Part shown: positions 514 through 47,995 of the stretch, piece by piece
Layout of the letters: each line of letters opens with the position of its first letter
Numbering within the stretch: the stretch's first letter is position 1
Translations under genes and position numbers: made by a program
Source: Dictyostelium discoideum
Lineage: Eukaryota
Direction: 5' to 3'
DNA length: 64,000 nt
Assembly: GCA_000004695.1 (NCBI GenBank)
Contig: CM000152.2
Coordinates: forward strand, 1,760,001-1,824,000
Notes under the pieces: model-generated
Seen by the model: only the letters and a program-made list of their open reading frames with translations
What the model was told of the DNA's origin: nothing
The model's database searches: none

Positions 514-960
514 ATGGCCACCACTGCTGTTACCCTTAAAGACGTCTGCCCACAAGAATTCATTGCTACCTACGCAAGATTCTTAAAGAAAACTGGTCGT
601 GTTCAAATCCCAAAATGGAATGATATCGCCAAAACTGCCACCTACAGAGAACTCCCACCAACCAACCCAGATTGGATTTACTACAGAATTGCCACCCTTG
701 CCCGTAAAGTTTACATCCGTGGTGGTGATGGTGTTGCAACCTACAGAAGAGTTTTCGGTGGTAACCGTAGAAACGGTGTCAGACCAAATCACTTTGCCGA
801 TGTCAATGGTGGAAACATCCGTTATTGTTTAAAACAATTACAAAACTTAAAAGTCATTGAAACCGACGCTGTCAAAGGTGGTCGTACCATCACTGCTACC
901 GGCCGTAGAGATCTCGACAGAATCGCCAAGCAAATCTATGACAAAAAAAACAAAATCTAA
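514..960 (+). CDS. rps19: 40S ribosomal protein S19 (eS19), single exon, 148 aa
   Basis: Complete ORF MATTAVTLKDVCPQEFIATYARFLKK...GRRDLDRIAKQ aligns end to end with the eS19 family (human RPS19: MPGVTVKDVNQQEF...GQRDLDRIAGQ). T-rich promoter-like tracts at 290-360 upstream. Codon usage typical of highly expressed Dictyostelium genes (GGT, CGT, ACC). Confidence 0.93.
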   Translation: MATTAVTLKDVCPQEFIATYARFLKKTGRVQIPKWNDIAKTATYRELPPTNPDWIYYRIATLARKVYIRGGDGVATYRRVFGGNRRNGVRPNHFADVNGGNIRYCLKQLQNLKVIETDAVKGGRTITATGRRDLDRIAKQIYDKKNKI

Positions 961-1271: not shown

Positions 1272-1904
1272 TTAAGTTCTCTTTAATTCATATTCTATTG
1301 CAGATAAATCATTTGAATTGTTTACAACAAAATCAGAAGGAGTTGGTGATAATTTTATATTACCCCAAATGTTTACATATAAACGCATAAACCCATTAAA
1401 TACTTTAATAATTCCATTTCTTAATATAATTGTATTACCTGGCTGTACAACATCATTTTGTTCTGTTGATTTTTTTACAATTAAAAATATATATTAAATA
1501 ATAATAAAAAATAAAGAAAATTGTTAATAATAATAATAATTAATAGTTTTTAACAAAATAAAAAAAATAATTTACCATTTTTAACAGTTAATATAATTGT
1601 ACCAGTTTCATCACCAACAACAGCTTCTGATATCATTTCTTTCTTATCTTTATTCTTTTCAATTACAACTTTTGTACTAACTACTTTTAAAATTAAATTA
1701 TGACCTGTTGACATTGGTTTTAAAGATGATACCTTTGAAACTAAAATAATAATAAAATATAAAAAAAGTTTGTTAGTATACCAATTTTTTTTTTTTTTAT
1801 TTTTTAAAAATAATAATAAAAATATCTCTCATTTTATTTTACTTTATTATAATATACATACAAGTTGGTTGTGTTAAAGGTGGTGCATTATTTTCAGTGG
1901 ACAT
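1272..1904 (-). CDS. OB-fold ssDNA-binding protein, hSSB/NABP (SOSS-B)-like paralog; 3 exons join(1904..1862,1740..1576,1462..1272), ~132 aa
   Basis: Exon 1 ATG TCC ACT GAA...ACT T | GTATGT donor; acceptor ...TTATTTTAG at 1741-1742; exon 2 ends AAAAATG | GTAAAT; acceptor ...ATCAACAG at 1463-1464. Spliced product ...LKPMSTGHNLILKVVSTKVVIEKNKDKKEMISEAVVGDETGTIILTVKNEQNDVVQPGNTIILRNGIIKVFNGFMRLYVNIWGNIKL... follows the hSSB1 pattern (KP..[10 protein letters not shown]...[14 protein letters not shown]...[12 protein letters not shown]...F.G.LTLY). It is not in the ORF track because every exon is below 60 aa. Confidence 0.5.
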
Positions 1905-2683
1905 TATGTTTAATTATATGTTTTAAATAAAGAAGAAAAAAAAAAAAAAAAAAAAAAAAAAATTTAATAAAAAAAAGATGCAAATAGGATCGTATAGATT
2001 TCGATATTTAGAAATAATCTGAAAATAAAAAAAAAAAATAAAAAAAAAAAAATATTGATTAAAAATAAAAAATTAATTTATGAAAATATTAATAAAAAAA
2101 AAAAAAAAAAAACCAGTGCAAATTCAATATAAAAAAAAAAAATTAATTTGTGAAAATAATAAAAAAAAAAATAAAAAAAAAAATTAAAAATAAAAAAAAA
2201 ATTAAAGTAAAAAAAAAAAATAAAAAAAAAATGCAAATATATATGTGTGTGAACATCATCTTATTTTAATATAACTAAATAAAAAAGGTTACCTTTATTT
2301 TATTTATTTTTTTAATTTACAAATTGGGTCAGATTTTTTTTTTTTACTTTAATTTTGGACAACTTAAATTCTTCCAAATTCGAATTATTGAATAAAAACA
2401 TTTGCCAAACTACTGATGAAAATTATTGCTCAAATATATTTTAATAATAATGAAAATAATTTCCAATAATAAATATATAACTCTAAAAAAAAAAAACTTT
2501 GATAATTAAAAAAAGGTTAAAAATTTAATTTTTGTATCCATTTTTATTATTATTATTTATAATGTAAAGTTTTTTTGAGATAAAAAGATAAATAATAATT
2601 AAAAATAAAAAATTAAAAGATTTAAAAATTTAAATAATATATTTTTTTTATTTTTATTTTATTTTATTTATTAGTTTATATTT

Positions 2684-5261
2684 TTATTCTTTATTAGCAT
2701 AAATTTCTCTAAATTGTTTAGCAACTTTAACCATATTAATTAAAGCTAATCTTGTAGTTTCTGGTTCTCTAGTTTTAAGACCACAATCTGGATTAATCCA
2801 TAAGAGATTAGTTGAGAGATATTTAAGCATTTGTTCAACACGATCTTTCATATCTTCAACAGATGGAATTCTTGGAGAGTGAATATCATAGAGACCTGGA
2901 CCAATTTCATTTGTGTAACCATATTTTTCAAAAGCTTTTAAGAGTTTGAGATCAGATTTTGAATTTTCAATAGTTAAAACATCAGTATCCATTCTTTGAA
3001 TTGATTCAAAGATATCATTGAAATCTGAATAACACATATGGGAGTGAATTTGAGTACTATCTTTAACACCAGTGCTTGATAATAAGAAAGAGTCAATTGC
3101 CCATTTAAGATATTGATTCCAATCGGATAAACGCAATGGAAGACCTTCACGAATTGCTGGTTCATCGATTTGAATACAAGCAATACCTTTATTTTCTAAA
3201 TCGGTAACTTCATCACGAATGGCTAAACCAATTTGGAAACAAGTTTCAGAACGTGGTTGGTCATCACGAACAAATGACCATTGAAGGATTGTAACTGGAC
3301 CAGTTAACATACCTTTCATTGGTTTGGTTGTGAGGGTTTGAGCAAATGTGGTATATTCAAGAGTCATTGGAACTGGTCTATTAACATCACCATAGATAAT
3401 TGGTGGTTTAACACAACGACTACCATAACTTTGTACCCAACCATTTTGAGTGAAAACGAAACCAGCTAAATATTCACCAAAATATTCAACCATATCGGTT
3501 CTTTCAAATTCACCATGTACTAAAACATCCAATTCACATTCTTCTTGAACTTTAATACATTTTCTAATTTCATCACGAATGAATTGATCATAAGCTTCTG
3601 GTGTGATTTTCTTTGATTTAAAGTTACTTCTTGCTAAACGGACTTCTTTAGTTTGTGGGAATGAACCAATAGTAGTGGTTGGGAATAATGCTGGAAGAGT
3701 AGTTAATCTTTTTCTTTGGGCTTCACGACGAACTGGGAATGGATTTTCACGTTTTAACATTGATGGAGTAATTTCAGTAACTCTCTTTTTAACGATATCA
3801 TTATGAATTAATTTTGATTCTCTTCTCTTTTGATTTGATTCTTTATTTAATTGATAATATTCTTTAATTTTTGAACAAGTATCTTCTGGGAAAGTAATAG
3901 TATTTTCAGTGGTAAAAGTACATTTATTAAGAGCGTAGGTAAGGAAAGAAATTTCTTTTAATTTCTCTAATGAGAAAGCTAACCAATCTAAGACTTGACT
4001 TTCAACTCTACCAATTTCACGAGTTAATGAATGTGGACAATGTAATAATGAACAAGATGGTGCCAATAAAATTCTATCACTACCAGTTTTGGCGATAATA
4101 TTCTTTAAGGTAACTAATGATTTAGTTAAATCATTCTTCCAAACATTTCTACCATCGATAATACCAATTGAAATTGTCCATGAGGTTGGAATTTTAGTTA
4201 AAACACTTTCAACTTCACTTGATGAACTTCTAATAGTATCAATATGAATACCATTTACTGGTAATGAAGTAATTAAATCAATATTTTCACGAATTTCACC
4301 GAAATAAGTTGCAATTAAAATATTAATATTTGGGGCAGCTTTATGAATTACATTAAAAGCAGTGGTATAAGCATTTTTAATTAATTCAGTTTCAAAGAGA
4401 TCAAAACATAAAACTGGTTCATCGATTTGAACAGATTTAACACCAATCTTTTCAAATTGTTTGAAAAGTTCTTCATAGACACCTAATAAAGCATTGAGGT
4501 GAACTAATGAATCGAATTTACTTGAATATGGTTTTGAACTATCACTTGATTTACCTAATAAAAGGAAAGAGATTGGGCCAAGAACAACTGGACGAGTTTC
4601 AATATCAATTGATTTTGCTTCTAAGAATTCGTGAATTGGTTTTGGTTCACTATAACCACCATAGTTTGTTAATTTGAATTGTTGAGAATCTTCAAATTCT
4701 GGTACAATGTAGTGATAATTTGTATCGAACCATTTCTTCATTTCCATACTACCAACATCGATTGATTTCTCAACTTTTGATGCAAATGCACCTTGAGTAT
4801 TGGTTTCTGAAACTTGGGTGGCTGCTTTTGAAGTTTGATAACCACGACCCATAGCGAAATAAGTACGTAAACCATTTGAACCATCTTCAATTTCAGATTC
4901 AACAACTGGAGTATAACGTTTTGGAATGGCACCAAATAAGTGAATATGATCTAAAACTTGATCATATAATGAAAAATCATTACTTGGAATAATTTCAATA
5001 CCAGCTTCCTTTTGTAATTTCCAATGATTAATTCTAATTTCTTTTAATTCCTTTTGGAATTGGGTTTCTTCAACTTTACCCTATTTTTAAAAAAAAAATT
5101 TTAAAAAATTTTAATTTTAATAAATTTATTTTATATTAAATATTTTATTTTAAAATAAAATTAAATTTTAGAAAACTTACTTGCCAATAGTTTTCAACTA
5201 ATTTCTTTAATTCACGGTTTTCACCCATTCTTGGGAAACCTAAATTTGATGATGAAACCAT
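2684..5261 (-). CDS. 5-methyltetrahydropteroyltriglutamate--homocysteine S-methyltransferase (cobalamin-independent methionine synthase, MetE); 2 exons join(5261..5181,5080..2684), ~825 aa
   Basis: The 722-aa ORF (2684..4852) carries MetE hallmarks throughout both barrel domains. Its in-frame region extends to 5080 and is preceded by the acceptor ...AAAAATAG. An upstream 81-nt exon encodes MVSSSNLGFPRMGENRELKKLVENYWQ, the canonical MetE N-terminus (MV.S..LGFPR.G..RELKK..E.YW), with a GTAAGT donor at 5180-5175. Phase 0 at both junctions. Confidence 0.92.
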
Positions 5262-11080: not shown

Positions 11081-11917
11081 AAGAGTTTATGTAAAAAAAA
11101 AATAATAAATAAATAAATAAATAATAAAGCTTTAGCAATCAAAAGGGATGGTTTAATTGTCATTCCAAAATAATTATCCTTTATAGGACCATTAAGTTTT
11201 AAAATTTTAATACCTTTTCTAAACAAATTTTATCTGACAAAAAATCCTTTCTTTTTTTTTTTTTTTTTTTTTTTGAATTAGAGTTTAGAAATTAAAGACA
11301 ATAAAAAATAATTAGCGATTTTTATTTTTTTATTTTAAAAATTTTAAAGTTGTTTATGAAATAGAACAAATAAATTTAAATGTATTGGTCAAATATTTGG
11401 ATTTTTAAAATTGATTGGGTCTTAGGAAATTTTATGATAATATTTTTTTTATGATTATTGAAATAAAATAAAAAATGATTACTTAATAAATTAAATGAGA
11501 AACCTCATTACAATTATAATATCTTAAATATGTGTCAAATTATATTTCAAATAATTTTAAACACCTTTGCTTTCATTACAAATTTAGAATATCTTATTTT
11601 GTGCCAAAGTATTCAAATATTAATTTTATATTGATTGTGTCATATGATATGGTATTAGTATAAACATGAAAATAATTTTCTTTTCAATTCTAATTGTTGA
11701 TCACATTTTCAAGAGTTAAAGCTACAAATAAATAAATTAAAAAATAAATATATTAAATAAATAAAAGAATATTAAATTTAAGCTTTTGTTACATTATAAT
11801 CATTACATAAAATTCATTGCATTAACCTGCGTTGAAATTAGACCACTTTCGTTACAAACTCACATAACAATAAAATTAAAAAAACATACACATGGTTATT
11901 ATTATTATTATAATTAT

Positions 11918-12306
11918 CTATTTATTTATTTTAGGGGTTTTTTCAATATATTCTTGATAAGTTTGAGTTGGTATAATTTCTTTGGATAGTTCATCCAAAC
12001 ATTGCACCATATAGTCAAAAACTGATTGATTCCAATCTTGCTGGCCTTTAATATGCAACTGATTTTTTGATACATCTGTTGAGTTGAATCCCAAACATAC
12101 CAACTCTATATTTTCTTTGATATAACCTTTTTTATTGTCAAGTCTATTCAATGACATTTGGAAAACACGTTCATCATTATCAATTTCACGGCTGTACAAC
12201 ATTATAATACCACTAAGATTACATTTACCTCTTTGAATTTTAATATCGTCGTCATCAATAATTTCTTGACTTTTTATTAATGAAAGTGTTGAAGAAAATA
12301 ATGAAG

Positions 12307-12386
<80 letters not shown>

Positions 12387-12731
12387 GATGATGATGAAGA
12401 TGATGAAGAAGAAGAAGATGCTGGTGATGAAGATGGTGAGGGTGTAATTATTACTATTATCAATTACTTCATTTTTATTTATATAATTATTATTTTTAAT
12501 AAAAGAACTACAACTACTATTATAAATATCTTCAAGTGGTCTTTTATTAAAATAAAAAGAAATACCAACATCATTCATACCTTTCCTCAGAATCTCTTGG
12601 TTTTCTTTTTCAATTTTTTCATTATATTCATCTAATGAACAAGATGTTTCTGGTCCTGAAGGGTAAACAAATTTTGGAGAAGAGTTCTTATTTATTTTTG
12701 TATTTTTATTATTTTTTTTATGATGAAGCAT
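11918..12731 (-). pseudogene. frame-disrupted gene (or gene with an undetected frame correction): upstream part 12731..12464 in one frame, downstream part 12463..11918 in the +1 frame, switching inside a (GAT/ATC)n trinucleotide array; weak cytosolic-sulfotransferase-like motifs; paralog of 48395..48658
   Basis: Frame A encodes ...FVYPSGPETSCSLDEYNEKIEKENQEILRKGMNDVGISFYFNKRPLEDIYNSSCSSF...NEVIDNSNNY. The S-frame opens only after a TAA at about 12460 and runs poly-Ser (~50 residues) then SLIKSQEIIDDDDIKIQRGKCNLSGIIMLYSREIDNDERVFQMSLNRLDNKKGYIKENIELVCLGFNSTDVSKNQLHIKGQQDWNQSVFDYMVQCLDELSKEIIPTQTYQEYIEKTPKINK*. LRKGMNDVGISFYF resembles the SULT 3'-PB motif (ARNAKDVAVSYYHF) and KGQQDWNQSVF resembles the SULT C-terminal RKGxxGDWKxxFT. 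No conventional intron can restore the frame. Confidence 0.35.
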
Positions 12732-13593
12732 TATGTAAATTTTCTATTAAAAAAACCAAAAATATTAATAATGTAACAAGATATGTTATAAAAACTTCAA
12801 ACTATAATAGATTTCGTCATAATAAAATTTAATAATTAAATTAATAAAATTTAATTAAATTAATAAACAGATGCCCAAATTTAAAACAAAAGTACCGATT
12901 CTACTAATTTTTATTATTTTAAACAGATGTCCAAATTTATAAAATTTAATTTATTTTATAATCTAAACCTATCAATTCGAAATCCTTACTAAAAATGATG
13001 TATTCAATTTTATTCTTACATTTTTAAATTTATTTGAAGTTTAATGGATTTAGATACTAAAAGTGTTAATAAAAAAAAAATCAAAAAAAAAAATTACTAA
13101 CATTTTATATAATTAAACTGAGAACTTTTTTGGGGTTACTTTATTTTTTTTTTTTTTTTTTTTTAAAAAAAAAATACAAGTGTCAGGGCTTGAAAAAAAA
13201 AAAAAAGATCTGGATTTTTTTTGGTGCCACTTTATTTTTTTTTTTTTTTTTTCTAAAAATAAATAAAAGTGTCAGAACCTTTTTGAAAAAAAAAAATCTG
13301 GACCTTTCAATTTTTTCAGGGAAATTAATACTAAAAGTTAAAGTTTATTGCTATATGAAATTATTTAAACACTGTGCCAAAACTAAAATAAAAAAAATAA
13401 AAAATATAAAAAATAAAAAATATAAAAAAATAAAAATTAATAAATAATATTAATAATCATTAGAATTTTTTTTTTAAGTTTTTTTAAATTTAAAAAACAT
13501 TAAAAATGAACAAATAGTTTATGGAATAATACTAACAATATTTTTTTAATTGAGTAGATTTCATCGAAATTTCGATACCTTATGACAAAGACA

Positions 13594-13667
13594 TGTGCCT
13601 GAAGGGTTTCGATCCCATGACCTATTGATTCGAAGTCAATCGCTCTTCCGAACTGAGCTACAAGCAC
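13594..13667 (-). tRNA. tRNA-Arg, anticodon TCG (UCG), 74 nt including discriminator
   Basis: Minus strand reads GTGCTTG TA GCTC AGTTCGGAA GAGC G ATTGA CTTCGAA TCAAT AGGTC ATGGG ATCGAAA CCCTT CAGGCAC A. Acceptor stem has 7 bp including one G-U; D stem GCTC/GAGC; anticodon stem ATTGA/TCAAT with U33 and A37; anticodon UCG. T arm has one T-T mismatch and an A54-type loop (ATCGAAA), so a tRNAscan score is needed. It is supported as a real pol III gene by DGLT-A-like and TRE5-A insertions at the family-typical distances upstream (15 and 47 bp). Confidence 0.6.
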
Positions 13668-13682
13668 CTTGGCTTCATGGTG

Positions 13683-13945
13683 TGTAATAAAGCTTGTTAG
13701 CTTTATAAATATATAATTAATAATTATATAATTGAATAATACTTTGTTATCTTTATTTAATATTAGTTTATATTTATAATATTCAATATTGTTTATAAAA
13801 TTATTCTTTAGTATTTATATTATTCATAATGAGTTGACAGTATTATTATTATTATTATTATATTATTTAAATGTGTGTCAACTATAATTAGTAATGTAAT
13901 ATGCATATTTAATATCTATTAATTTTATAGAGTAACTTTATTACA
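13683..13945 (-). repeat. 3' LTR of the DGLT-A-like element (263 bp)
   Basis: Identical to 16071..16333 and terminates TGTAAT.../...ATTACA. The element ORF stop codon TAA is formed by LTR bases 13941-13943 (TG-TAA-T). Confidence 0.85.
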
Positions 13946-14542
13946 TATCCCCCCCTTTTAGTTGAAAAAAATTTTTCAATCTTTTAATATAAAACACATC
14001 ATGATTTTTAATATTATCCAATACTAATTTGAATTTTAAATCGCTAACTCTCTCATGTACTTTGAAAAGACCTTCCCAAGATTTATTGAGCTTTACTGGA
14101 CCAACAGTGGATTGTAAATAGACATAATCTCCTACTTGAATATTTGAACGAGAAACTTTTTTATTAATTTGTGATAATTGGTCTTTACCAAGATTATCCT
14201 TAATGAGACAAGGACGTTTGAGGTTATTATTAACAATTTGAGCGAAATTATGAGCAAAATCTAATCTTGATAAATTTGTACATGGATTTCTTATTAATGG
14301 TTGAATTGAGGTTATTTGTGATTTAATTATTGAATTCTCTGTTTGATTTAATGATATTGATTTTAATGGTAAATTTGATGTTATTGGTGAATCTATTGGT
14401 TCTTGGAATAAGAATTCTGGAATATCGTAATCTATTGGTAGTTGTTCTTCAATAGTTGGATACGATTTGATTGATAGTATATGATGAGAATTAAAATTTT
14501 CAATTAAATGATCAGTATCTGTTAATAATTCTGATTTTGATG

Positions 14543-14594
<52 letters not shown>

Positions 14595-15869
14595 TGAATA
14601 ATCAGATACTGTTTTAAATATAGTTTGTATACATGGTTGGGTTTCTTTAGATATTAATTTGGTACCAACATTGAATTCAAGATTCTTAATGATCATTTCT
14701 TTAAAATCAATGACTAAATTTAATCCAATTATTGTATCAATGCCAAATATACAATCAATTGATGTATCATTATCTTTAACAACATTAACTTTAACTCTAG
14801 CGAATGCTTTACCTAATTTAATTGTTGTGTTACTTATTCCAATGATTTCGATTTGATTATTTGATGCTGATTTAACAGAATATTGTTTATTTTCAATCTT
14901 TAATTTTAACTTTTTAGCAATACTTTCCCAAACAATAGTAAGTGATGAACCAGTATCAATCAAACCTCTAACATTTTTATTATTTATTAATAAAGCTGCA
15001 TTCATACTATCTATTCCAATTGAATTAATTGTACTATTATTGACCATTGTAATTGAATTAGTTCTATTATTGTAATTGTTATTATTATTTTTATCTTTTG
15101 ACCAACACTCTTGAATTACATGACCTTTCTTTTTGCAATATTTACAAAATTTTGTGATTGAATTTACTTGATTTTGTGGTGCTTTATAAGGGGATGATTG
15201 TGGTGACATTTGTGGTGATCGATTATAATATTGATTTTTAAAAATTGGTGTTGAAATTTCTTCAGATTCAATTGATTGTTGTTCGTTTTGAGATGTAACA
15301 TATTGAGGGGATGTTGCAGAATAACCCGAACCCGAACCTAGATATCTTTGATTACCAAATTCTTGCAACGTCTTTGCAACTAATTGACCAGTGTACATTG
15401 ATCTACCTTTGATACGAATTGAACCATCTTCACAAGACTTTGCAATATCTATTGCTCTTTTTAATGATTTTGGTGCACATTTTGTAATTTTAATACCCAA
15501 TTCAGTACCAACAGCTGAATAAAACAATTGTATTTTAAACTTTTCTGAAATATCAACTGCTGAACATTTTGATAGAAATTTACCAATTAATATATCTAAT
15601 GTATTGTATTTATATTCTCCCAACTTTGTTAATTCTGTTAAATCATCACTATCACCAATATCAAAAGCATCTTTAAGATCTTCAATTATCTCCATTGCTG
15701 TTAAGTCTGTATCCAATGTTGCGGCATATTCCAATGCATTGTTTCTTAGTTTTCTAATAATATCAGCTTTCGATATTTCCTCGCCATGAATTAATAAGAG
15801 TAAGTGTTTGAATTTACGAAATGATAAACCTTTTCCATCACCCGAAAAAATTACGTTTTCATTATTACT

Positions 15870-15872
<3 letters not shown>
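13941..15872 (-). CDS. retrotransposon polyprotein remnant (643 aa): Gag-CCHC + aspartic protease fused in frame to integrase C-terminal domain; RT/RNase H/integrase core deleted
   Basis: Continuous ORF from ATG (15872) to a TAA supplied by the 3' LTR. Motifs are listed under the element feature. It reads through the polypurine tract as K-G-G. Confidence 0.8.
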
Positions 15873-16333: not shown

Positions 16334-16369
16334 GGTGTAATGAACGTCGTATTCCAATTCCTATGAAAT

Positions 16370-17255
16370 TAAGTGTGGACACACCACTCACACCTGGAAT
16401 GTGAAGATTTTAAACCATCTACAAATTGCACTAGTAGCCAATTTAATAGCTATTATATTCGAAAAAATTTGGCACAAAAGAAACAAACTCATTCACGATG
16501 AAAAAGAAATAATAATTCACAGACAACAAGTAATACGTGAACTAATTAAAACACAAAGAGCTGCATGGGACAGGACACAAGCGGTTATAAACAAAACATT
16601 AAGAATCAAATCAAAGCAACGGCCAGAAGAACAAAATAAACTAGACTCACTAATCTCGCTAAAGCTATTACAATTTAGCAGACAATGGAACTCACCTCTT
16701 CACGCAATAGAACTTCCTAAACATCTCAAAAAATACAATAATTCACTCAGTACTTTCTATAAATAAATAAAAAAAAAAAAAAAAAAATAAAAAAATAAAA
16801 AAAAAAAAAAAAAAAACTTGGGAACCCAAGTTAATCAGAAAATTTCCAGATTTTTAACTTTTTAAAGAAAAATAAAAAAAATAGAAAGAAAATAAAATGA
16901 AAATCACAAACAACACCACAAATATTAAGCAACACAAATGCCTACAAAAAATAAGCGAAATTGTGGATAAAACTCAATTAAAAAAAAAACAATTCAAATA
17001 CGTCATAAACATCAATCACGAACCAGACGATAAAATAAAAAAAGATATAGAAAAAAGTTTGGACAAAAAAGATGTTTTAATCAAAAGTAATAATATAATT
17101 CAAAATTCGAAACAAAAAAAAAAAAAAAAAAAAAAAAAAAGGTAAACCAACCCCTCTTTTAGAGACCCTGTAAAAAAAAAAAAATAAAATAAAATGAGAT
17201 CTAGCATCTCAAGGAGAAGCAAATAATAATTGCGTTATCCAATTCAAAAAAAAAA
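16370..17255 (+). mobile_element. 5'-truncated TRE5-A (DRE) copy: ORF2 3' end (16370..16766), B-module with ORF1-start duplicate (16897..17145), C-module, oligo(A) 17246..17255; flanked by 15-bp TSD CAATTCCTATGAAAT (16355..16369 and 17256..17270)
   Basis: ORF 16401..16766 is about 99 percent identical to the C-terminus of the 772-aa ORF2 at 39975..42293. 16897..17145 matches 39583..39831 (MKITNNTTNIKQHKC...). The C-module segment aaatgagatctagcatctcaaggagaagcaaataataattgcgttatccaattc matches the 3' end of the full copy. Removing the DGLT-like element and one GGTG places the truncated 5' end 47 bp upstream of tRNA-Arg, the canonical TRE5-A position. Confidence 0.75.
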
Positions 17256-18590: not shown

Positions 18591-18649
18591 GACCTATTGA
18601 TTCGAAGTCAATCGAGCTTCTGAAATGAGCTACAAGCACCAGGCTTTTC
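18591..18649 (-). pseudogene. tRNA 5'-half fragment (acceptor 5' strand through variable loop) related to tRNA-Arg(TCG); bracketed by ~30-bp direct repeats (18549..18578 and 18650..18679)
   Basis: Minus strand GGTGCTTGTAGCTCATTTCAGAAGCTCGATTGACTTCGAATCAATAGGTC equals the first 50 nt of the 13594..13667 tRNA with D-arm substitutions; the T arm and 3' acceptor are absent. Both flanks carry CTCATTTAATTTATTAAATAATTATTTTT. Confidence 0.5.
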
Positions 18650-19088: not shown

Positions 19089-20968
19089 ATGTTTAATCAA
19101 ACTAAAATATTTTTATTTTTATTTTTGTTACTATCTTTATTTGTTTTTATTGGTATGGATAAATATTTTTTTTTTTTTTTTTCATTATATTTATTAAAAT
19201 GGTTTTAATATTAACAATGGGTTAATTTTTTATTTTAGATTGTTACCCATGCGATTATAATGTAGGTTGTGATGATGGAGATGAATGTACTGGTGATTCA
19301 TGTTCAATTGATAATTTATGTATAAATATTATTATTTCATGTGATGATAGTAATTTATGTACCAGTGATTCTTGTTCAAGTATAACTGGTTGTTCTAATG
19401 TACCAATTTCATGTGACGATTGTAATGCTTGTACCGTTGATTCTTGTTTGCCATTGATTGGTTGTTGTCATGCTCCAATGGTATGTGATGATTGTAATGC
19501 TTGTACAGTTGATTCATGTTTAAATTCAACTGGTTGCTGTCATACTCCAATAGTATGTGATGATTGTAATGCTTGTACAATTGATTCTTGTTTAAATTCA
19601 ACTGGTTGTTGTCATACTCCAATGGTATGTGATGATGGTAATGCTTGTACAAATGATGGTTGTTCAAGTGAAACTGGTTGCAATCATTTGCCAATTTCAT
19701 GTGATGATTGTAATGCTTGTACATTGGATTCTTGCTCACCAATTACTGGTTGTTGTCATAGTCAAATTTCATGTGATGATTGTAATGCTTGTACATTAGA
19801 TTCTTGTTCACCAATTATTGGTTGTTGTCATACTCAAATGGTCTGTGATGATGGTAATGCTTGTACAAATGATGGTTGCTCTGAAGAAACTGGTTGTTGC
19901 CATACTCCAATTTCATGTGATGATGGCAATTCTTGTACAAATGATGGTTGCTCTGAAGAGACTGGTTGTTGTCATACTCCAATTTCATGTGATGATGGTA
20001 ATGCTTGTACATTAGATTCTTGCTCCTCAACTACTGGTTGTTGTCATACTGCAATGGTATGTGATGATGGTGATGCCTGTACATTAGATTCTTGTTCACA
20101 AACTTCTGGCTGTTGTAGTTCACCAATTTCATGTGATGATGGTAATGCATGCACTAATGATGGTTGTTCAAGTGAAACTGGTTGTATTCATTTACCAATT
20201 TCATGTGATGATGGCAATGCTTGTACAAATGATGGTTGCTCTGAAGAAACTGGTTGTTGTCACACTCCAATTTCATGTGATGATGGTAATGCTTGTACTA
20301 ATGATGGTTGCTCTGAAGAGACTGGTTGTTGTCACACTCAAATTTCATGTGATGATGGTAATGCTTGTACAAATGATGGTTGTTCAAAGGAAGATGGTTG
20401 TATTCATTTACCAATCTCATGTGACGATTGTGATGCCTGTACAGTTGATTCTTGTTCAAATGAAGATGGTTGTATTCATTTACCAATTTCATGTGACGAT
20501 TGTGATGCTTGTACAATTGATTCTTGTTTAAATTCTACTGGTGGTTGTTGTCATACTCCAATTTCATGTGATGATGGTAATGCTTGTACAAATGATGGTT
20601 GTTCAAGTGAAACTGGTTGTAATCATTTACCAATTTCATGTGATGATGGTAATGCTTGTACATTAGATTCTTGCTCACCAACTACTGGTTGTTGTCATAC
20701 TCCAATTTCATGCGATGATGGTGATGCTTGTACATTAGATTCTTGTTCACCAACTTCTGGCTGTTGTAGTTCCCCAATTTCATGTGATGATGGTAATTTA
20801 TGTACAATTGATTCCTGCTCACCTTCAACTGGTTGTTGTCATACTCCAATTTCTTGTAATGATCTCAATATGTGCACCATTGATTTCTGTCTCCCAAATT
20901 TTGGTTGTGTTCATAGATTAAGACCATCATGCCATAACTATAACGAAATTGGTATTAATATAAATTAA
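19089..20968 (+). CDS. secreted cysteine-rich protein built from ~20 tandem 26-28-aa Dicty_CTDC-type repeats (GCCHTPISCDDGNACTNDGCSEET); exons join(19089..19152,19239..20968), ~598 aa
   Basis: Exon 1 MFNQTKIFLFLFLLLSLFVFIG is a signal peptide with a GTATGG donor at 19153. Acceptor TTATTTTAG at 19237-19238; phase 1 is consistent with ORF 19448..20968. The repeat consensus is C-x-D-x-N-x-C-T-x-D-x-C-S-x-x-T-G-C-C-H-x-P-I-S. Antisense His/Tyr-rich ORFs in the track are by-products of the repeat. Confidence 0.7.
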
Positions 20969-39461: not shown

Positions 39462-39907
39462 TGATTAATCTTTTTTTTTTTTGAATTGGATAACGCAATT
39501 ATTATTTGCTTCTCCTTGAGATGCTAGATCTCATTTTATTTTATTTTTTTTTTTTTTTTTTACAGGGTCTCTAAAAGAGGGGTTAGTTTACTTTTTTTTT
39601 TTTTTTTTTTTTTTGTTTCGAATTTTGAATTGTATTATTACTTTTGATTAAAACATCTTTTTTGTCCAAACTTTTTTCTAAATCTTTTTTTATTTTATCG
39701 TCTGGTTCGTGATTGATGTTTATGACGTATTTGAATTGTTTTTTTTTTAATTGAGTTTTATCCACAATTTCGCTTATTTTTTGTAGGCATTTGTGTTGCT
39801 TAATATTTGTGGGGTTGTTTGTGATTTTCATTTTATTTTCTTTCTATTTTTTATATTTTTCTTTAAAAAGTTAAAAATCTGGAAATTTTCTGATTAACTT
39901 GGGTTCC

Positions 39908-39974
<67 letters not shown>

Positions 39975-42293
39975 TTATTTATAGAAAGTACTGAGTGAAT
40001 TATTGTATTTTTTGAGATGTTTAGGAAGTTCTATTGCGTGAAGAGGTGAGTTCCATTGTCTGCTAAATTGTAATAGCTTTAGCGAGATTAGTGAGTCTAA
40101 TTTATTTTGTTCTTCTGGCCGTTGCTTTGATTTGATTCTTAATGTTTTGTTTATAACCGCTTGTGTCCTGTCCCATGCAGCTCTTTGTGTTTTAATTAGT
40201 TCACGTATGACTTGTTGTCTGTGAATTATTATTTCTTTTTCATCGTGAATGAGTTTATTTCTTTTGTGCCAGATTTTATCGAATATAATAGCTATTAAAT
40301 TGGCTACTAGTGCAATTTGTAGATGGTTTAAAATCTTCACATTCCAGGTGTGAGTGGTGTGTCCACACTTAGTTAGGGTGTAGTTGAAGATTTCTTGTGT
40401 GTTTTTGATGTGGGCTTTGCAGTTGAAGAATATATGTTCTGAGGTCTCATCTTCCCCACACTGTTGGCATGGCATGTTGTATATTTTTGGTAGTGCTTTC
40501 AGTGTGTATCTCCATAATAGATCTCTACCTTTCATGTTTATTATTTTTTTGATTTCTTTAAATGGAAGGTGTTTGCTATTAATTTTGGTCATTATTTCTT
40601 TTTGGCCAGGAGTTGGTATGAATTTGTTGTGTTCAGGAGATTGAGTTGTCATCATATCCTCGTATATTTTTTTTAATTTTGGGAGGTGTTCGTAGTGTGT
40701 TTGTTTATTTTGTGGAGTTTTTAATTGGGTCCATGCTTGCTTGCATTGCCAGTGTAGTTGTAGTTGATTTTGTTTTGTTGTTGTTTTGTTGTTGTTGTTG
40801 TTTTTGAGTTCCTCTTCCCACAGTTTTATATATGAACTAGGAGTGTTACTTACTCTTTGGTGGAGGTATCTTTCGAATAACCATGCTTTCTGTGCTAGTT
40901 CTCTTGTCTTCAGGTTCCATAAGTTTAGGCCACCATTGATATAGTTGTTTTGTCTTCTTTGTAGTGAAAGAGAGTTTTTAGATTTTGTGTTGAAAACGAA
41001 TTTTACGATGTTATTTTCAATACTATTGTGTTGTGGTGTGGTGTTGATGTAAGTGTGGAACGTTAACTGAGATAGTGCATATGTTTTTGCCATTATGAGT
41101 CTGCCCATATAGGTTGATGAAGTTGAGTTCCATGTTACTAGTTTAGCTCTGATGTTGTCTGAGATTGTATTGATTTTGGATTTGATACCCTTATTGTTGA
41201 AGTCAAAGCCGAGGTACCTTTCGTTTGATTTTATGACGGTGTATAGCGTTCTGGTGTTCCATTTGAAAGTGATACACGAGCATTTGGTTTGGTTTATTTT
41301 TGCGCTGGTTGCTTGGCAAAACTTCTTGATCCATTCATTCATGAGGAAATGGTCCATAAAGTTGTATGCTATTGTTGCTGTATCATCGGCGAACTGTAGT
41401 ATTTTAATGGTTTCTTTGGTTACACCATTGATGCAGCGGTCATTTATTATAGTAGTTGCCATGCATTCAACCACTAATGCGAAGATAGTGGGAGAGATAG
41501 GATCCCCTTGTTTGGTTCCTCTTTTTGATGTAAAGCTTTTAGATAATGAGTTATTGATGTACCCTGATGTTTCTGATTCATTGAGTAAGTTCATTATTGT
41601 GAGGACCATTTTGAGTGGTAGTTTTAGATGTGCAAGAGTACGTAGAATGGCGTTATGTGAGATTGAATCGAATGCTTTTTCAAAATCATAAAATGTTATG
41701 ATTGGTTCCATATCCTCTTTTGTGTTAATCTCTCGTTTTATTATTTCTATTGTTGAGTTTAAGGTGATGATGTTATCGTGCAGTAGTCTTCTTGGTACGA
41801 ATCCAGTTTGGAATGGTGAGATTATTTTGTTTAAGAACTTCAGGATCCTATTGTTGATTATTTTCGAATAGATTTTGTAATCGACATTTAGAAGTGTTAT
41901 TGGTCTATAGTTATCCAGGTTGTTTGGGTCTCCTTTGTTTTTATATATAGTAATCAATATCCCTTGTTTGAAGTCCTTTGGGATTGTTGTGTTCCAGAAG
42001 TGATTGTATAGTTTTGATATTATTGGTAGAATTTCATTAATGTGGTTTTTGTAAAATGTTGGAAGGAGTCCATCTTTACCAGGTGCTTTTCCTTCTTGTA
42101 TTTTTTCAATGCCTAGTCTGATTTCGTATTCTTCTATTGGTTGATTAATTTCGTCCAATATCTTTTGATCAATCCTTTTATTGAATGTTTTTAGGAGTTC
42201 GTGGTGAGTGTCTTCGTTGCATTCTCTCTTCTGGTACAGGTTCTCGTAATATCTTCTTGCTACTTCGAGGATATCCTCGTTTTTTGTTACCAA
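39975..42293 (-). CDS. TRE5-A ORF2 reverse-transcriptase and C-terminal segment (772 aa as listed; in frame with 42351..43196)
   Basis: RT motifs are present (...ISPFQTGFVPRRLLHDNI..., QFADDTATIA). The C-terminal 120 aa are duplicated almost exactly in the truncated copy at 16401..16766. Confidence 0.85.
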   Translation of the reverse strand: MVTKNEDILEVARRYYENLYQKRECNEDTHHELLKTFNKRIDQKILDEINQPIEEYEIRLGIEKIQEGKAPGKDGLLPTFYKNHINEILPIISKLYNHFWNTTIPKDFKQGILITIYKNKGDPNNLDNYRPITLLNVDYKIYSKIINNRILKFLNKIISPFQTGFVPRRLLHDNIITLNSTIEIIKREINTKEDMEPIITFYDFEKAFDSISHNAILRTLAHLKLPLKMVLTIMNLLNESETSGYINNSLSKSFTSKRGTKQGDPISPTIFALVVECMATTIINDRCINGVTKETIKILQFADDTATIAYNFMDHFLMNEWIKKFCQATSAKINQTKCSCITFKWNTRTLYTVIKSNERYLGFDFNNKGIKSKINTISDNIRAKLVTWNSTSSTYMGRLIMAKTYALSQLTFHTYINTTPQHNSIENNIVKFVFNTKSKNSLSLQRRQNNYINGGLNLWNLKTRELAQKAWLFERYLHQRVSNTPSSYIKLWEEELKNNNNNKTTTKQNQLQLHWQCKQAWTQLKTPQNKQTHYEHLPKLKKIYEDMMTTQSPEHNKFIPTPGQKEIMTKINSKHLPFKEIKKIINMKGRDLLWRYTLKALPKIYNMPCQQCGEDETSEHIFFNCKAHIKNTQEIFNYTLTKCGHTTHTWNVKILNHLQIALVANLIAIIFDKIWHKRNKLIHDEKEIIIHRQQVIRELIKTQRAAWDRTQAVINKTLRIKSKQRPEEQNKLDSLISLKLLQFSRQWNSPLHAIELPKHLKKYNNSLSTFYK

Positions 42294-42350
42294 ACAATTG
42301 TTGCTTGGATCTAGAATTTGAGGGATTTCATTTGTCTTTCTTTGGACTTT

Positions 42351-43196
42351 TCACCTTCTGGTTAAGTATTTTGATGGTGTTTCTTTGTTGTTGATGTGGG
42401 TGTTGGTTTGGTTTGCTTGTTTTATTCTTACTTGTTCCTTTAGAATATTGTTGATCTCTTCTTTAAGGAAGATTGCTCTTGAATCTTTGGCTGTTTCGAG
42501 TTTTTCTGCGAGTTCTTTTAGTTTGTTTTTGGTTTTATTGCTTTCTCTAATTTCTATATTAATTGACAGTTTCTTTATTTCATCTTTTAGTTTCAACCAT
42601 TGTTCGCAAATGTTTAATTTGTACCATTTGCTGGTGTTCTCTTCGAATTTTTTATTGTAGTATTTAATTGTTTTATTAATTTTGAGGCTGGTTGAATTCA
42701 TTTTGAGAGTTTCTAGGTTTTGTCTCCATAGTCTTTCTCCTTTCTTTTGTTGCTCGTATTCTGGTATTTTTAATTCAATGATTACCATGTTGTGATCAGA
42801 TTTTAATTTGATTTCCTTAGTAGTAACTATTGGGTTTAGATGGAGTATCTTCTTTGAGACAAAGACCCTATCGATGGTTGATTTGTTTCTTGGAAATGTG
42901 ATTCCATTCTTAATTTCTGTAAATTCGAATTCGTCGAAGATTGTTTTAATATATTTGTTAAGGTTATTATCCACTGAACAGTCTACATTGAAGTCTCCAG
43001 TTATAATATCGCTGTGTAGTATTTCTTCTGTGAGATTTTCCTTATACCATTCATGTCTTTCGTTTGACTTTGCTGGGGCATAAATGGTTGTGCATTTGAT
43101 CTGTGTTTTTGCAATCATCCATTCGGAAGATATAATTCTTTCGTTTATTGTTTTTGTTGTTGTTTTTATTTGGGTGTTGATGATGATTTGTGACAC
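42351..43196 (-). CDS. TRE5-A ORF2 N-terminal segment (apurinic/apyrimidinic-endonuclease-like domain), terminated by an in-frame TGA at 42353..42351
   Basis: 281-aa ORF ...DHNMVIIELK... ending ...ETPSKYLTRR*. The same reading frame continues after the TGA for 19 codons (KVQRKTNEIPQILDPSNNC) into the 772-aa RT ORF, so ORF2 is interrupted by a single nonsense codon, not a frameshift. Confidence 0.75.
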   Translation of the reverse strand: MSQIIINTQIKTTTKTINERIISSEWMIAKTQIKCTTIYAPAKSNERHEWYKENLTEEILHSDIITGDFNVDCSVDNNLNKYIKTIFDEFEFTEIKNGITFPRNKSTIDRVFVSKKILHLNPIVTTKEIKLKSDHNMVIIELKIPEYEQQKKGERLWRQNLETLKMNSTSLKINKTIKYYNKKFEENTSKWYKLNICEQWLKLKDEIKKLSINIEIRESNKTKNKLKELAEKLETAKDSRAIFLKEEINNILKEQVRIKQANQTNTHINNKETPSKYLTRR

Positions 43197-43408
43197 CCCT
43201 TGTCCTGTTTTATCAATTGGTGCGTGGTGTGTTATTTTGTTTTTATATTGTTGATTTATTGAGTAAATTTTATTTGTTTTTATATTTGTTTCAGTTAGAA
43301 GTGCTGCGTCCAGCTTGTTGTTGTCTAATACGGTGTTTATTATGCTGGCAGATTGGATGGTGTTGGATCCTTGGACGTTCCAAACACCTATTCTTATTGT
43401 GTTTTTCT

Positions 43409-44743
43409 TTATAGTTTTATTTGGGGTAGATTTTTATCTACCTTTTGAAGTTTCTGGTTTATTTTGTCTTCTAACTGATCTTTACTTTGTTCGTTGTGTT
43501 GTTGGTCTTGTGTGTTTGTGGGGTTTTTTGATTTACTGATTTGTTTTAGAATTTCCTTGTTGAAGTTGTCTATATCTTCATCCATTTTTGTTTTTATGCT
43601 TTTTTGTCCATATTCACCCAATTTTGGTTTGACTGGTGTTTTGTTGGTCCTGTTTGTTTTGTCTTGTTGTTTGTTTTTTGGTGTGTTTAACAATTTACTT
43701 GGTGAATCGATAATTTTCGATGGTGTACCATAGGTTGGGCTGAAACTCATGATATGTTTTATTGGAGAGGAGAAGAACCATTGATTTGAAGGGATTGAAA
43801 GTGGGAATTCTATTTTTCTTATTGCATCAGTGTTTGGGCTGGTGAAGTCGAAGATATCATTTACCTCTCTAAGTTTTTCTTCCGTTGTTAGTCTCTTTGT
43901 TTCGCCGTGTTGTTTTATTGGTGTATTGTATGGAGATGGTGGTTCAATAGGTTTTTCTGATTTTGTTTTAATTTCTTGATTGTTTATCGATTGGGTATTG
44001 ATCTCATTCTCTATTCTTGTTAGTTCATCTACGTTTTCTAGTGATGCATCTATTACCTTTTGAGCTGTATCATCTAGGGCCATAAATGTTTTATCATTAG
44101 ATGAGGAGGTGATTGGTGGGATAATGATTGTTCTTTTTCCTTGTTTTGGTATTTGTTCTGATGTAGATTGTGGTTGTTGTTCATCTGATTGTTTTTTATT
44201 TTTGTTTTCTTCTTGATTTTCTGGTAATGAGGTTTGATCTCTCCATCCTTTGTTGGAGTGACCAATTAATGTTAGATTGTCTAGTTCAATGATAGTGTCA
44301 TATTCTTCTACGACTCTTTTCACTGTTTTGATAATTAGAGTTTCGCCTTTAATTTCAGATTTAATTAGTTTACATCCTTCATTTTCTATTACCCATTCTA
44401 TTTCTGTGAGTGATTTATACCAATCGAAATCCGTATACATATTTTTTGGTCTTAGAGTGGTTATAAATTGTCCTTTTAATTCTGCATCGAACATATTTAC
44501 AAAATAGATTACTGTACTAATACTGTCTGTGAGAATTTTGAATGTATTATTACTTTTGATTAAAACATCTTTTTTGTCCAAACTTTTTTCTAAATCTTTT
44601 TTTATTTTATCGTCTGGTTCGTGATTGATGTTTATGACGTATTTGAATTGTTTTTTTTTTAATTGAGTTTTATCCACAATTTCGCTTATTTTTTGTAGGC
44701 ATTTGTGTTGCTTAATATTTGTGGTGTTGTTTGTGATTTTCAT
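43409..44743 (-). CDS. TRE5-A ORF1 protein (444 aa)
   Basis: Long ORF MKITNNTTNIKQHKCLQKISEIVDKTQLKKKQFKYVININHEPDDKIKKDLEKSL.... It is 98-99 percent identical to the second copy at 46047..47381, and its N-terminus is duplicated in the 3' B-modules. Confidence 0.85.
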   Translation of the reverse strand: MKITNNTTNIKQHKCLQKISEIVDKTQLKKKQFKYVININHEPDDKIKKDLEKSLDKKDVLIKSNNTFKILTDSISTVIYFVNMFDAELKGQFITTLRPKNMYTDFDWYKSLTEIEWVIENEGCKLIKSEIKGETLIIKTVKRVVEEYDTIIELDNLTLIGHSNKGWRDQTSLPENQEENKNKKQSDEQQPQSTSEQIPKQGKRTIIIPPITSSSNDKTFMALDDTAQKVIDASLENVDELTRIENEINTQSINNQEIKTKSEKPIEPPSPYNTPIKQHGETKRLTTEEKLREVNDIFDFTSPNTDAIRKIEFPLSIPSNQWFFSSPIKHIMSFSPTYGTPSKIIDSPSKLLNTPKNKQQDKTNRTNKTPVKPKLGEYGQKSIKTKMDEDIDNFNKEILKQISKSKNPTNTQDQQHNEQSKDQLEDKINQKLQKVDKNLPQIKL

Positions 44744-44819
44744 TTTATTTTCTTTCTATCTTTTATATTTTTCTTTAAAAAGTTAAAAATCTGGAAATTT
44801 TCTGATTAACTTGGGTTCC

Positions 44820-44862
<43 letters not shown>

Positions 44863-44865
<3 letters not shown>

Positions 44866-45332
44866 TCTTTTTTATATGAAAAATGAAATAATCAAAAAAA
44901 GAGATTGTTGTTGTTGTTTGTTTTTTTTCGATCTGATTATTTTTTGCTTTTTTTTGAAAATTTTGCTACGCAAAATTCTCAAAACGAAACAAATAATAAA
45001 TTACAATAAAGTAAAAAGATGGCTTTTTAAGATAGTTTATTTATTTATTTATTTGTTTTTTAAGTCTTTTTTATATGAAAAATGAAATAATCAAAAAAAG
45101 AGATTGTTGTTGTTGTTTGTTTTTTTTCGATCTGATTATTTTTTGCTTTTTTTTGAAAATTTTGCTACGCAAAATTCTCAAAACGAAACAAATAATAAAT
45201 TACAATAAAGTAAAAAGATGGCTTTTTAAGATAGTTTATTTATTTATTTATTTGTTTTTTAAGTCTTTTTTATATGAAAAATGAAATAATCAAAAAAAGA
45301 GATTGTTGTTGTTGTTTGTTTTTTTTCGATCT
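44863..45332 (-). repeat. TRE5-A A-module tandem array: 199-bp unit x ~2.4 at the 5' end of the first TRE5-A copy
   Basis: Units start at 44863, 45062 and 45261 (aagtcttttttatatgaaaaatgaaataatcaaaaaaagagattgttgttgttgtttg...). The last unit is truncated at CGATCT where it meets the target-site copy at 45333. Confidence 0.7.
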
Positions 45333-45333
45333 C

Positions 45334-45348
45334 ATTGGTGATTAATCT
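45334..45348. repeat. 15-bp copy ATTGGTGATTAATCT at the junction between the first TRE5-A 5' end and the second copy's oligo(A)
   Basis: See 39447..39461. Confidence 0.7.
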
Positions 45349-45689
45349 TTTTTTTTTTTTTTTTTTTTTTTTTTGAATTGGATAACGCAATTATTATTTG
45401 CTTCTCCTTGAGATGCTAGATCTCATTTTATTTTTTTTTTTTTTTTACAGGGTCTTTTTGATTAAAACATCTTTTTTGTCCAAACTTTTTTCTAAATCTT
45501 TTTTTATTTTATCGTCTGGTTCGTGATTGATGTTTATGACGTATTTGAATTGTTTTTTTTTTTTTAATTGAGTTTTATCCACAATTTCGCTTATTTTTTG
45601 TAGGCATTTGTGTTGCTTAATATTTGTGGTGTTGTTTGTGATTTTCATTTTATTTTCTTTCTATCTTTTTTATTTTTCTGATTAACTTG

Positions 45690-45750
<61 letters not shown>

Positions 45751-46046
45751 TTATAGAAAGTACTGAGTGAATTATTGTATTTTTTGAGATGTTTAGGAAG
45801 TTCTATTGCGGGTGTTGATGATGATTTGTGACACCCCTTGTCCTGTTTTATCAATTGGTGCGTGGTGTGTTATTTTGTTTTTATATTGTTGATTTATTGA
45901 GTAAATTTTATTTGTTTTTATATTTGTTTCAGTTAGAAGTGCTGCGTCCAGCTTGTTGTTGTCTAAAACGGTGTTTATTATGCTGGCAGATTGGATGGTG
46001 TTGGATCCTTGGACGTTCCAAACACCTATTCTTATTGTGTTTTTCT

Positions 46047-47381: not shown

Positions 47382-47457
47382 TTTATTTTCTTTCTATTTT
47401 TTTTATTTTTCTTTAAAAAGTTAAAAATCTGGAAATTTTCTAATTAACTTGGGTTCC

Positions 47458-47500
<43 letters not shown>

Positions 47501-47503
<3 letters not shown>

Positions 47504-47949: not shown

Positions 47950-47964
47950 ATTGGTGATTAATCT
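47950..47964. repeat. 15-bp copy ATTGGTGATTAATCT at the 5' boundary of the second TRE5-A, 31 nt upstream of tRNA-Val
   Basis: See 39447..39461. This copy lies in native tRNA-upstream context. Confidence 0.7.
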
Positions 47965-47995
47965 TAATGACATTCATAACAAAAAAATCATGTTT

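Follow-up and report, generated by a model that had tools for sequence, protein, structure and literature searches.

Probable pseudogene fragments of a PacI-like His-Me finger family of giant-virus type beside tRNA genes of Dictyostelium discoideum

The window analysed in this work is a 64-kb stretch of AT-rich DNA of Dictyostelium discoideum (contig CM000152.2; source record of 6.36 Mb), which carries on its minus strand a long and a short copy of the same protein-coding sequence, each close to a tRNA gene. Judging from sequence comparison, both open reading frames (ORFs) are probably pseudogene fragments of a family of PacI-like His-Me finger proteins of giant-virus type, and the sulfotransferase likeness proposed for them is probably spurious. 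The ancestor would have been a protein of about 400 amino acids, in which a zinc ribbon at the N-terminus preceded a tandem pair of PacI-like His-Me finger domains (HNH, beta-beta-alpha-metal). The family appears to be specific to Dictyostelium, and intact proteins of the same architecture would today be found mainly in Nucleocytoviricota. The long copy would be 5'-truncated, 11918..12301 being its surviving second domain, and nothing at 11918..12731 is likely to work as a gene. The features of the two loci are the following (HMM, hidden Markov model; TRF, Tandem Repeats Finder):

11918..12301, minus strand: long copy, predicted second PacI-like His-Me finger domain with C-terminal extension, family HMM E=3e-50; reads '..IIDDDDIKIQRGKCNLSG..MSLNRLDNKKGYIKENIELVCLGFNSTD..GQQDWNQSVF..' to the stop at 11918-11920
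12175..12199, minus strand: 25-nt segment, deleted with a frameshift in the copies L007-L012 from six sequencing runs (blastn)
12301..12439, GAT on the plus strand, i.e. (TCA/ATC)n on the minus strand: (GAT)n array, TRF period 3, 46.3 copies, 88% matches
12441..12731, minus strand: upstream ORF, MLHHKK...NNYT, continuing through the array as poly-Ile to 12255
48395..48658, minus strand: short copy, 87 codons, beginning in the middle of the second domain at '..EDRVFKMSLNRINN..', with the 'Q.GKCNLSG' segment absent
48198..48220, minus strand: A23 run seen by direct reading, 174 nt beyond the stop codon of the short copy; the tRNA-Val 3' end is about 127 bp away

An earlier note on this DNA had paired the two ORFs, and their paralogy is real. 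BLASTP aligns the short copy with the C-terminal part of the long locus at 52/81 identities (64% over 81 amino acids, E=1e-39), and the family HMM finds two matches only in the 64-kb window, with E=3e-50 for the long copy and 1e-39 for the short one, the next being above 0.6. The short copy covers only positions 182-263 of this HMM. Part of it (48395..48613) is the annotated 72-amino-acid hypothetical protein DDB_G0279235 (Q54X33); despite this gene annotation the short copy is predicted from its sequence to be unable to fold as a His-Me finger. The A23 run which follows it could be a poly(A) tail, though such runs are common in this genome. At the long locus the minus-strand ORFs 11918..12463 and 12255..12731 lie in different frames with an offset of +1, and their overlap falls inside the trinucleotide array. 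The protein collection holds no exact match to the long-copy protein sequence, a search for contigs encoding DDB_G0279235 itself returned none, and the literature searched makes no mention of DDB_G0279235; among the top matches in the literature on Dictyostelium, HNH endonucleases and giant viruses there was nothing on this family.

The identity of the shared domain emerges from profile comparisons. Pfam gave nothing relevant for the two window proteins, the upstream ORF or the fuller relatives, and for the window proteins no match at all at E<=10. In PHROGs, families annotated as endonuclease, HNH endonuclease and endonuclease VII match the window protein with E=1e-9 to 3e-4; phrog_3322 gives E=1e-9 with the window protein, and fuller relatives reach values down to 9e-11. 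A profile built from the Dictyostelium copies retrieves a large phage and bacterial family with the motif 'F.IT.eyl..L...Q.GKCnLSG....SLDRIDs.KGYI.GNVQWvHK.IN.MK', and alignment of the two profiles ('SLDRID..KGY..N' family) by hhalign yields a probability of 99.35% and E=6e-21. When the profile of the phage and bacterial family is run against PDB sequences, PacI (3ldy) is on top with E=2.6e-4, all others being above 0.05, and the alignment spans the zinc ribbon and 'VDRSDSFEGYSPQNARLACFICNRIK'. The viral two-domain profile also has PacI as first PDB match (E=0.008), and endonuclease VII structures are among the Foldseek matches.

At the level of single residues R53, Y60, N64 and N73 are invariant and equivalent to R93, Y100, N104 and N113 of PacI, N73 being thus kept; the pair G59-Y60, invariant in all Dictyostelium copies and nearly so in 65 relatives, aligns with G99-Y100 of PacI. 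In the segment 'SLNRLDNKKGY' an Arg stands at the His position, so that the catalytic His is absent. Group 20 of the published His-Me finger classification has PacI as its type member, lacks a Pfam model and consists mostly of giant-virus proteins with few eukaryotic ones (PMC5714182). In the PacI group the catalytic His is absent and the omega-loop Tyr takes its role (PMC5714182; PMC4081073), and the single metal is held by one Asp and one Asn (PMC4081073). We therefore class the shared domain, from its sequence, as a His-less PacI-type His-Me finger (HNH) of group 20. The earlier note had regarded the protein as possibly belonging to a family not described so far, which no longer holds in view of the match to the PacI-like His-Me finger domain with its giant-virus relatives. 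Its sulfotransferase reading fails as well and cytosolic sulfotransferase identity was dropped: Pfam is negative at E<=10, the motif KGQQDWN..F is part of the extension of the nuclease domain ('KGQQDWNQSVF' is the counterpart of 'G..GWSKEKF', the extension conserved C-terminally of the second domain in viral relatives), and the other two motifs cited lie outside the domain, in the unrelated and unconserved upstream ORF.

Some observations weigh against this assignment or against its functional side. The link to PacI is transitive, leading from Dictyostelium to the phage family and from there to PacI, and depends on E=2.6e-4. At the metal position all Dictyostelium copies have Asn, in the first domain as well as in the second, as compared to Asp in the phage family, Glu in the viral family and D92 in PacI; if the Asp-His pair of other HNH enzymes is taken as a guide (D40 of T4 endonuclease VII), the position aligned with D92 would bind the metal. 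The Cys4 zinc site around the PacI core is not conserved, only C27 ('GKC') and C69 ('LVC') being left of CxxC...CxxC. The N-terminal ribbon is lost from the window copies; L003, a fuller copy, and the viral relatives have its 'C..C...C..C' pattern. Given the Asn at the metal position, the ancestor in Dictyostelium may have cleaved DNA poorly or only bound it. PacI acts as a homodimer whose subunits each cut one strand, with a Tyr replacing the usual His; two domains in tandem on one chain could therefore form a pseudo-dimer able to bind an asymmetric DNA site and possibly to cleave it.

An exhaustive profile search in a collection of 1.84 billion representatives returned 4293 cluster representatives at E<=1e-3. 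The best relatives are proteins of 300-850 amino acids with two or four matched domains, whose consensus consists of a zinc ribbon, a first domain 'SLERLD..KGY..N..L.CLEFN', a second ribbon and a second domain 'SLERID..KGYTK.NVCLIC.EFNS.D'. Members of the wider family include the named protein YASMINEVIRUS_52 (P0275), a protein whose contig carries the genes for a major capsid protein of nucleocytoplasmic large DNA viruses (NCLDV) and for VLTF3 at 4.6 kb and 4.5 kb, respectively, further proteins on giant-virus-like contigs, and proteins of one green alga and one dinoflagellate. The long copy matches the giant-virus two-domain profile with E=2e-20 at positions 254-347 only, which is the second domain. 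The closest intact relatives are the two-domain zinc-ribbon proteins of giant viruses; an intact close homologue was sought among the 1.84 billion representatives and none was found, as only five matched at E<=1e-30 and four of these five are Dictyostelium fragments.

The break in the reading frame of the long copy is, with the same good probability as the pseudogene verdict of which it forms part, genuine decay, and correcting the repeat length would restore no gene. The array with its serine run and +1 offset is as described earlier: its 139 nt (12301..12439) yield about 45 Ser when read in the downstream ORF and poly-Ile when read in the upstream ORF, and the remnant of the domain, truncated at its 5' edge, borders directly on it. 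The upstream ORF had been taken for the other half of the same gene, which it is not: it scores negatively against the full-length family HMM, has no match to the family by tblastn, has no Pfam match and is absent from the protein collection. With the orthologous locus L014 it shares only its first ~30 nt (within a 68-nt match at 12704..12771), and the corresponding sequence of L014 is full of stop codons. It is therefore outside the family and probably no real coding region of the long-copy gene. As the upstream ORF is unrelated and unconserved at L014, the array would be the edge of a 5'-truncated pseudogene and not a repeat-length error. By eye its 'GISFYFNKRPLEDIYNSSC' had been considered as a diverged start of the first domain, an idea discarded on the negative score against the full-length family. 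A short intron joining both frames was also discarded, since the GT..AG candidates read from the sequence, in which no splice-site scan was made, span only 14-47 nt and are not AT-rich; with an unrelated upstream ORF the intron question is moot.

That the long copy is instead an intact single-frame gene, possibly sulfotransferase-like, with a frame break due to a repeat-length sequencing error, is hardly credible. A length error would be plausible in a trinucleotide array of 139 nt, but fusing the frames would append half a nuclease protein to an ORF that is neither related to it nor conserved, and such an error could therefore not rescue a gene, as the earlier note had suggested it might. The window lacks the first domain and zinc ribbon which are kept in the orthologue L014, other isolates carry the further 25-nt frameshifting deletion, and no sulfotransferase or other Pfam family matches at E<=10.

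The other Dictyostelium copies present the same picture of decay. They were found in short contigs of public sequencing-run assemblies and in four 20-kb loci (L013-L016) of new Dictyostelium assemblies, so that together with the window five loci have flanking sequence. In L003, which keeps the ribbon and both domains, two in-frame stops interrupt the sequence; the D. discoideum copy L013 is broken by one frameshift and one stop, and L014 bears at least six lesions, a TRE5 fragment cutting off its 3' end. Two stops are present in L015, whose duplicate L016 (94% identical) is truncated and bears one stop; the frameshift of L001 falls in an A run. Copies vary in where they are truncated and have the 3' end in common. 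L014 is the orthologue of the long-copy locus, as its flanks align on both sides, the domain being 89% identical; it retains the first domain, of which the family HMM finds no remnant in the window. Isolates with the 25-nt deletion at 12175..12199 are about 99% identical and of D. discoideum type. The earlier description as a decaying gene family is thus borne out, every copy examined being truncated, stop-bearing or frameshifted, with the 25-nt deletion in isolates in addition. The contig L001 (SRR26869268) holds at ~590..620 the closest-to-intact relative of the L015 type, whose halves are split by a single-base shift in an A8 run; this is either a true frameshift or a homopolymer assembly error, in which latter case the open frame would be much longer.

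In the 62-codon core the paralogues differ by a pS (proportion of synonymous differences) of 0.6-1.0 and a pN (non-synonymous) of 0.14-0.25, i.e. a dN/dS of about 0.1-0.2, and the source lineage had therefore long been under purifying selection, whether its members served the host or formed an active selfish gene. For the recent duplicates L015 and L016 dN/dS is about 1, on 6 substitutions only.

Both window copies lie near tRNA genes, and the relevant sites are:

13594..13667, minus strand: tRNA-Arg(TCG) (ARAGORN), oriented like the long locus and 863 bp away on its 5' side
47995..48070, plus strand: tRNA-Val(TAC) (ARAGORN), 325 bp from the short copy, whose 3' end points at the 3' end of the tRNA gene
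11466..11529, minus strand: degenerate site orthologous to tRNA-Val(CAC) of L014, about 390 bp 3' of the long copy, where ARAGORN calls no tRNA

The distances agree with the positions given in the earlier note, and of its proposal of a mobile unit at tRNA genes the co-location stands and extends to the other loci, whereas mobility finds no support in shared termini, target-site duplications or empty sites. L013-L016 were fetched by protein alone, regardless of tRNAs, and every copy with flanks has its nearest tRNA gene at 49 bp to 2.9 kb: in L015 a tRNA-Trp is 49 bp past the stop codon, in L016 a tRNA-Trp is ~810 bp off with partial tRNA fragments between, in L014 a tRNA-Val(CAC) is ~510 bp off and in L013 a tRNA-Met is 2.9 kb off with a 644-bp repeat between. 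At an assumed density of ~400 tRNA genes per 34 Mb the Fisher combined p is 7e-6 for four independent loci, and 2.5e-4 with the background density multiplied by three for intergenic space. The 3' end of the copy faces the tRNA in 4/4 independent loci (binomial p=0.06).

Turnover of the tRNA genes themselves is visible at the long locus. tRNA-Arg(TCG) is absent from the orthologous L014, where ARAGORN finds an intact tRNA-Val(CAC); positions 11019-11109 of L014 correspond at 80% to 11623-11533 of the window, beside the degenerate site. This Val(CAC)/Arg exchange between the window and the sister-species locus suggests fast gain and loss of tRNA genes here. Partial 5' tRNA-Trp fragments of 24-35 nt (96-97%) lie upstream of intact tRNA-Trp genes at 12410..12554 of L016 and 20087..20111 of L015; each follows a similar ~40-nt leader, and they are found with and without a nearby family copy. 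A homing signature as in the WHO elements, with partial target copies lying between element and target gene, was for this reason not considered diagnostic, as partial tRNA-Trp occurs in L016 and also upstream of the second tRNA-Trp gene of L015, at which a search through the whole of L015 detected no family match. The repeat of L013 (13254..13897, 644 bp) lies ~60 bp upstream of tRNA-Met, and an inverted copy, 97.7% identical, is present at 2551..3187 by tRNA-Leu; 99-nt sub-repeats (1819..2401) reach 49 bp upstream of this tRNA-Leu, a position typical of TRE5, and the whole resembles a TRE5-type 5' module made up of tandem sub-units.

How the fragments came to lie beside tRNA genes allows of several answers. 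It is possible, and we hold it only tentatively, that the family spread as, or together with, a small free-standing selfish unit, which landed or persisted in the retroelement-tolerant flanks of tRNA genes and then decayed. Its most specific form, in which the copies are fossils of a DNA-level, tRNA-gene-associated selfish element spread by homing or break repair beside genes of RNA polymerase III (Pol III), is unlikely; such an element would be a ~1.2-kb gene of giant-virus origin for a single-chain two-domain PacI-like endonuclease, with its 3' end facing the tRNA. It is rated low because of the Asn at the metal site, which by sequence argues against a fully active nuclease and hence against homing, and because of the few loci. 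The association with tRNA genes has only about four independent loci behind it. Shared termini, target-site duplications and empty sites were sought among the loci and none were found, nor do the paralogue loci share non-coding termini or repeats, the coding domain alone being alignable. None of the three viral homologue loci (0/3) has a tRNA gene within 10 kb, so that the linkage belongs to the Dictyostelium genome rather than to the protein family. As 61% of tRNA genes carry a TRE (PMC5006619), the flanks of tRNA genes gather non-functional DNA, and survivorship alone could explain part of the association. All this tells against the selfish unit, at which the tRNA association hints without proving it. 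An equally tentative answer is that the family once belonged to the host: a gene of viral type, for a DNA-binding protein or a nuclease, would have been domesticated in the D. discoideum lineage, duplicated and lately become non-functional everywhere, with copies left near tRNAs since these flanks are retroelement-rich, recombination-prone and deletion-tolerant in a compact genome. The dN/dS of about 0.1-0.2 between paralogues fits long purifying selection in a host, and Asn in place of the metal-ligand Asp or Glu in both domains of all copies suggests a non-nucleolytic role of host type. L015 and L016 are segmental duplicates including the tRNA-Trp gene, TRE fragments and partial tRNAs abound at the loci, tRNA turnover is seen at the long-copy locus (Arg in the window only, Val(CAC) in L014 only) and the viral homologues are without tRNA linkage. 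Yet no annotated dictyostelid proteome has an intact copy, four independent paralogues by four different tRNA species are hard to derive from one duplicated gene-tRNA pair, and the association is still significant after the threefold intergenic correction.

Reverse transcription of source-gene mRNAs and their insertion in trans by TRE5 or TRE3, giving 5'-truncated, poly(A)-tailed and dead-on-arrival copies by tRNAs, would fit the variable 5' truncation with a common 3' end, the TRE elements at these same tRNAs, the A30 run 25 nt past the stop of L013 and the A23 run of the short copy, which at ~127 bp downstream of tRNA-Val is within the 40-150 bp window of TRE3. TRE5 inserts 44-54 bp upstream of tRNA genes in opposite orientation and TRE3 40-150 bp downstream in the same orientation (PMC5911963), but the geometry is reversed in all loci, upstream copies being co-oriented with the tRNA and the downstream copy anti-oriented, which argues against simple trans-mobilisation by TREs despite the A runs after two copies. 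Only two copies are followed by such runs, which are ubiquitous in this genome, L015 is without an A tail, and no target-site duplications were recognised; we regard the retrocopy origin as rather improbable. The family was also considered as a C-terminal domain of a retroelement polyprotein and this was rejected, as the L014 unit starts in AT-rich non-coding DNA ~30 codons before the ribbon with no reverse transcriptase (RT) upstream. Still somewhat less probable is that pieces of DNA from giant viruses or another foreign source were captured at breaks close to Pol III genes, each copy being a separate integration out of a viral lineage that was diverging. In favour of this, those intact relatives that come nearest are viral, the truncation points vary, and saturated synonymous divergence with low dN/dS is expected of genes evolving in a virus; against this, all Dictyostelium copies share 'SLNR', 'ELVCLGFNS.D' and 'GQQDWN', which are absent from viral sequences, identity to any known viral protein is only ~30%, no other virus-derived gene was seen beside the copies, and the composition is host-like.

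Whatever their route, DDB_G0279235 and its unannotated neighbour, read as probable relics of a giant-virus-type PacI-like nuclease family, receive a label in place of "unknown/sulfotransferase-like", and they would be a further sign that genes have passed between giant viruses and amoebae. The 72-amino-acid "gene" of the reference annotation would be a truncated domain fragment. If the association holds genome-wide, dictyostelid tRNA flanks would host a DNA-level selfish gene family beyond the five known retroelement families, and a DNA-level element, if real, would be a non-retroelement answer to the 'safe haven' problem solved by TRE, DGLT-A and Skipper-2; the association would be ordinary if it is mere survivorship in retroelement-rich flanks.

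The window contains further elements around the two tRNA genes. On the 5' side of tRNA-Val, head-to-head with it, lies a TRE5-A-like non-LTR retrotransposon (LTR, long terminal repeat) at 39580..47950 on the minus strand, with an RT ORF at 39975..42293 (RVT_1, E=6e-33) and two tandem 444-amino-acid ORF1 copies, 43409..44743 and 46047..47381; the segments around 44536..44877 and 47174..47515 repeat each other. An inverted copy, 96-98% identical, of the 3' part of this TRE5-like element (39580..40374) is found at 16367..17148 as an isolated fragment 2.7 kb from tRNA-Arg. A partial tRNA-Arg(TCG), consisting of the first 49 nt at 92% identity, is present at 18591..18639 on the minus strand, 5 kb from the intact gene; relative to the long copy, too, this partial gene is 5 kb away. 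The 643-amino-acid ORF at 13941..15872 on the minus strand, 274 bp 5' of tRNA-Arg, has a retroviral-type aspartyl protease domain (PF13650, E=1e-10; PF13975, E=1e-9) and could be a gag-protease remnant of an LTR retroelement of DGLT-A or Skipper type or a Ddi1-like host gene. On the plus strand, an ORF at 19448..20968 consists of ~20 tandem 24-amino-acid Dictyostelium CTDC repeats (PF00526, E=2e-195), with a period of 72 nt over 19196..20938.

Among known systems, the free-standing homing genes, such as the seg and mob genes of phages and the WHO elements beside FBA1 in yeast, are small single-gene nuclease-type units with diverged and mostly dead copies. Like the Dictyostelium copies they stand beside a highly conserved, target-like gene, with the end facing it kept and the far side truncated; unlike in homing genes, there is an Asn at the metal site here, and partial tRNA fragments as those near L016 also occur without a copy. 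The retroelements TRE5, TRE3, DGLT-A and Skipper-2 occupy the same niche, tens to hundreds of bp from tRNA genes, and have many degenerate 5'-truncated copies, whereas the PacI-like family has no reverse transcriptase, integrase or LTR and is a single gene of ~1.2 kb.

With T4 endonuclease VII (PF02945) the family has in common the superfamily and the motif spacing (DHDH..G..RGLLC..CN), and phrog_1035 carries its annotation. Neither the window proteins nor their relatives match PF02945 or any other Pfam model at E<=10, the equivalents of His41 and His43 are Arg and Asp/Asn, and the context is not that of a junction resolvase. The phage and bacterial SLDRID proteins (phrog_3322, phrog_3118, phrog_1035) share the core motif 'F.IT.eyl..L...Q.GKCnLSG....SLDRIDs.KGYI.gN' (hhalign 99.3%), but are of single-domain type and of putative function, with Asp at the metal position and 'VQWVHK.IN.MK' where Dictyostelium has 'ELVCLGFNS.D'. 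In PacI itself (PDB 3ldy/3m7k) a zinc ribbon at the N-terminus precedes the beta-beta-alpha-metal core, whose motif is '.DR.D...GY...N..L.C..(C/F)N'; an Arg replaces the catalytic His beside the metal-ligand position, and the omega loop has the conserved Tyr. PacI is a one-domain homodimer, while the ancestral Dictyostelium protein would have had two tandem domains in one chain, and the window sequences differ from it as probable pseudogene fragments which have lost the core Cys4 site, carry Asn at D92 and have no restriction-modification context. The two-domain proteins of giant viruses (YASMINEVIRUS_52 and those of metagenomic NCLDV contigs, such as P0051 and P0258) differ by being intact, by an identity of only ~25-34%, by a Glu at the position of the Dictyostelium Asn and sometimes by an extra C-terminal domain, and share with the family the same architecture including the C-terminal 'GW..KF' extension.

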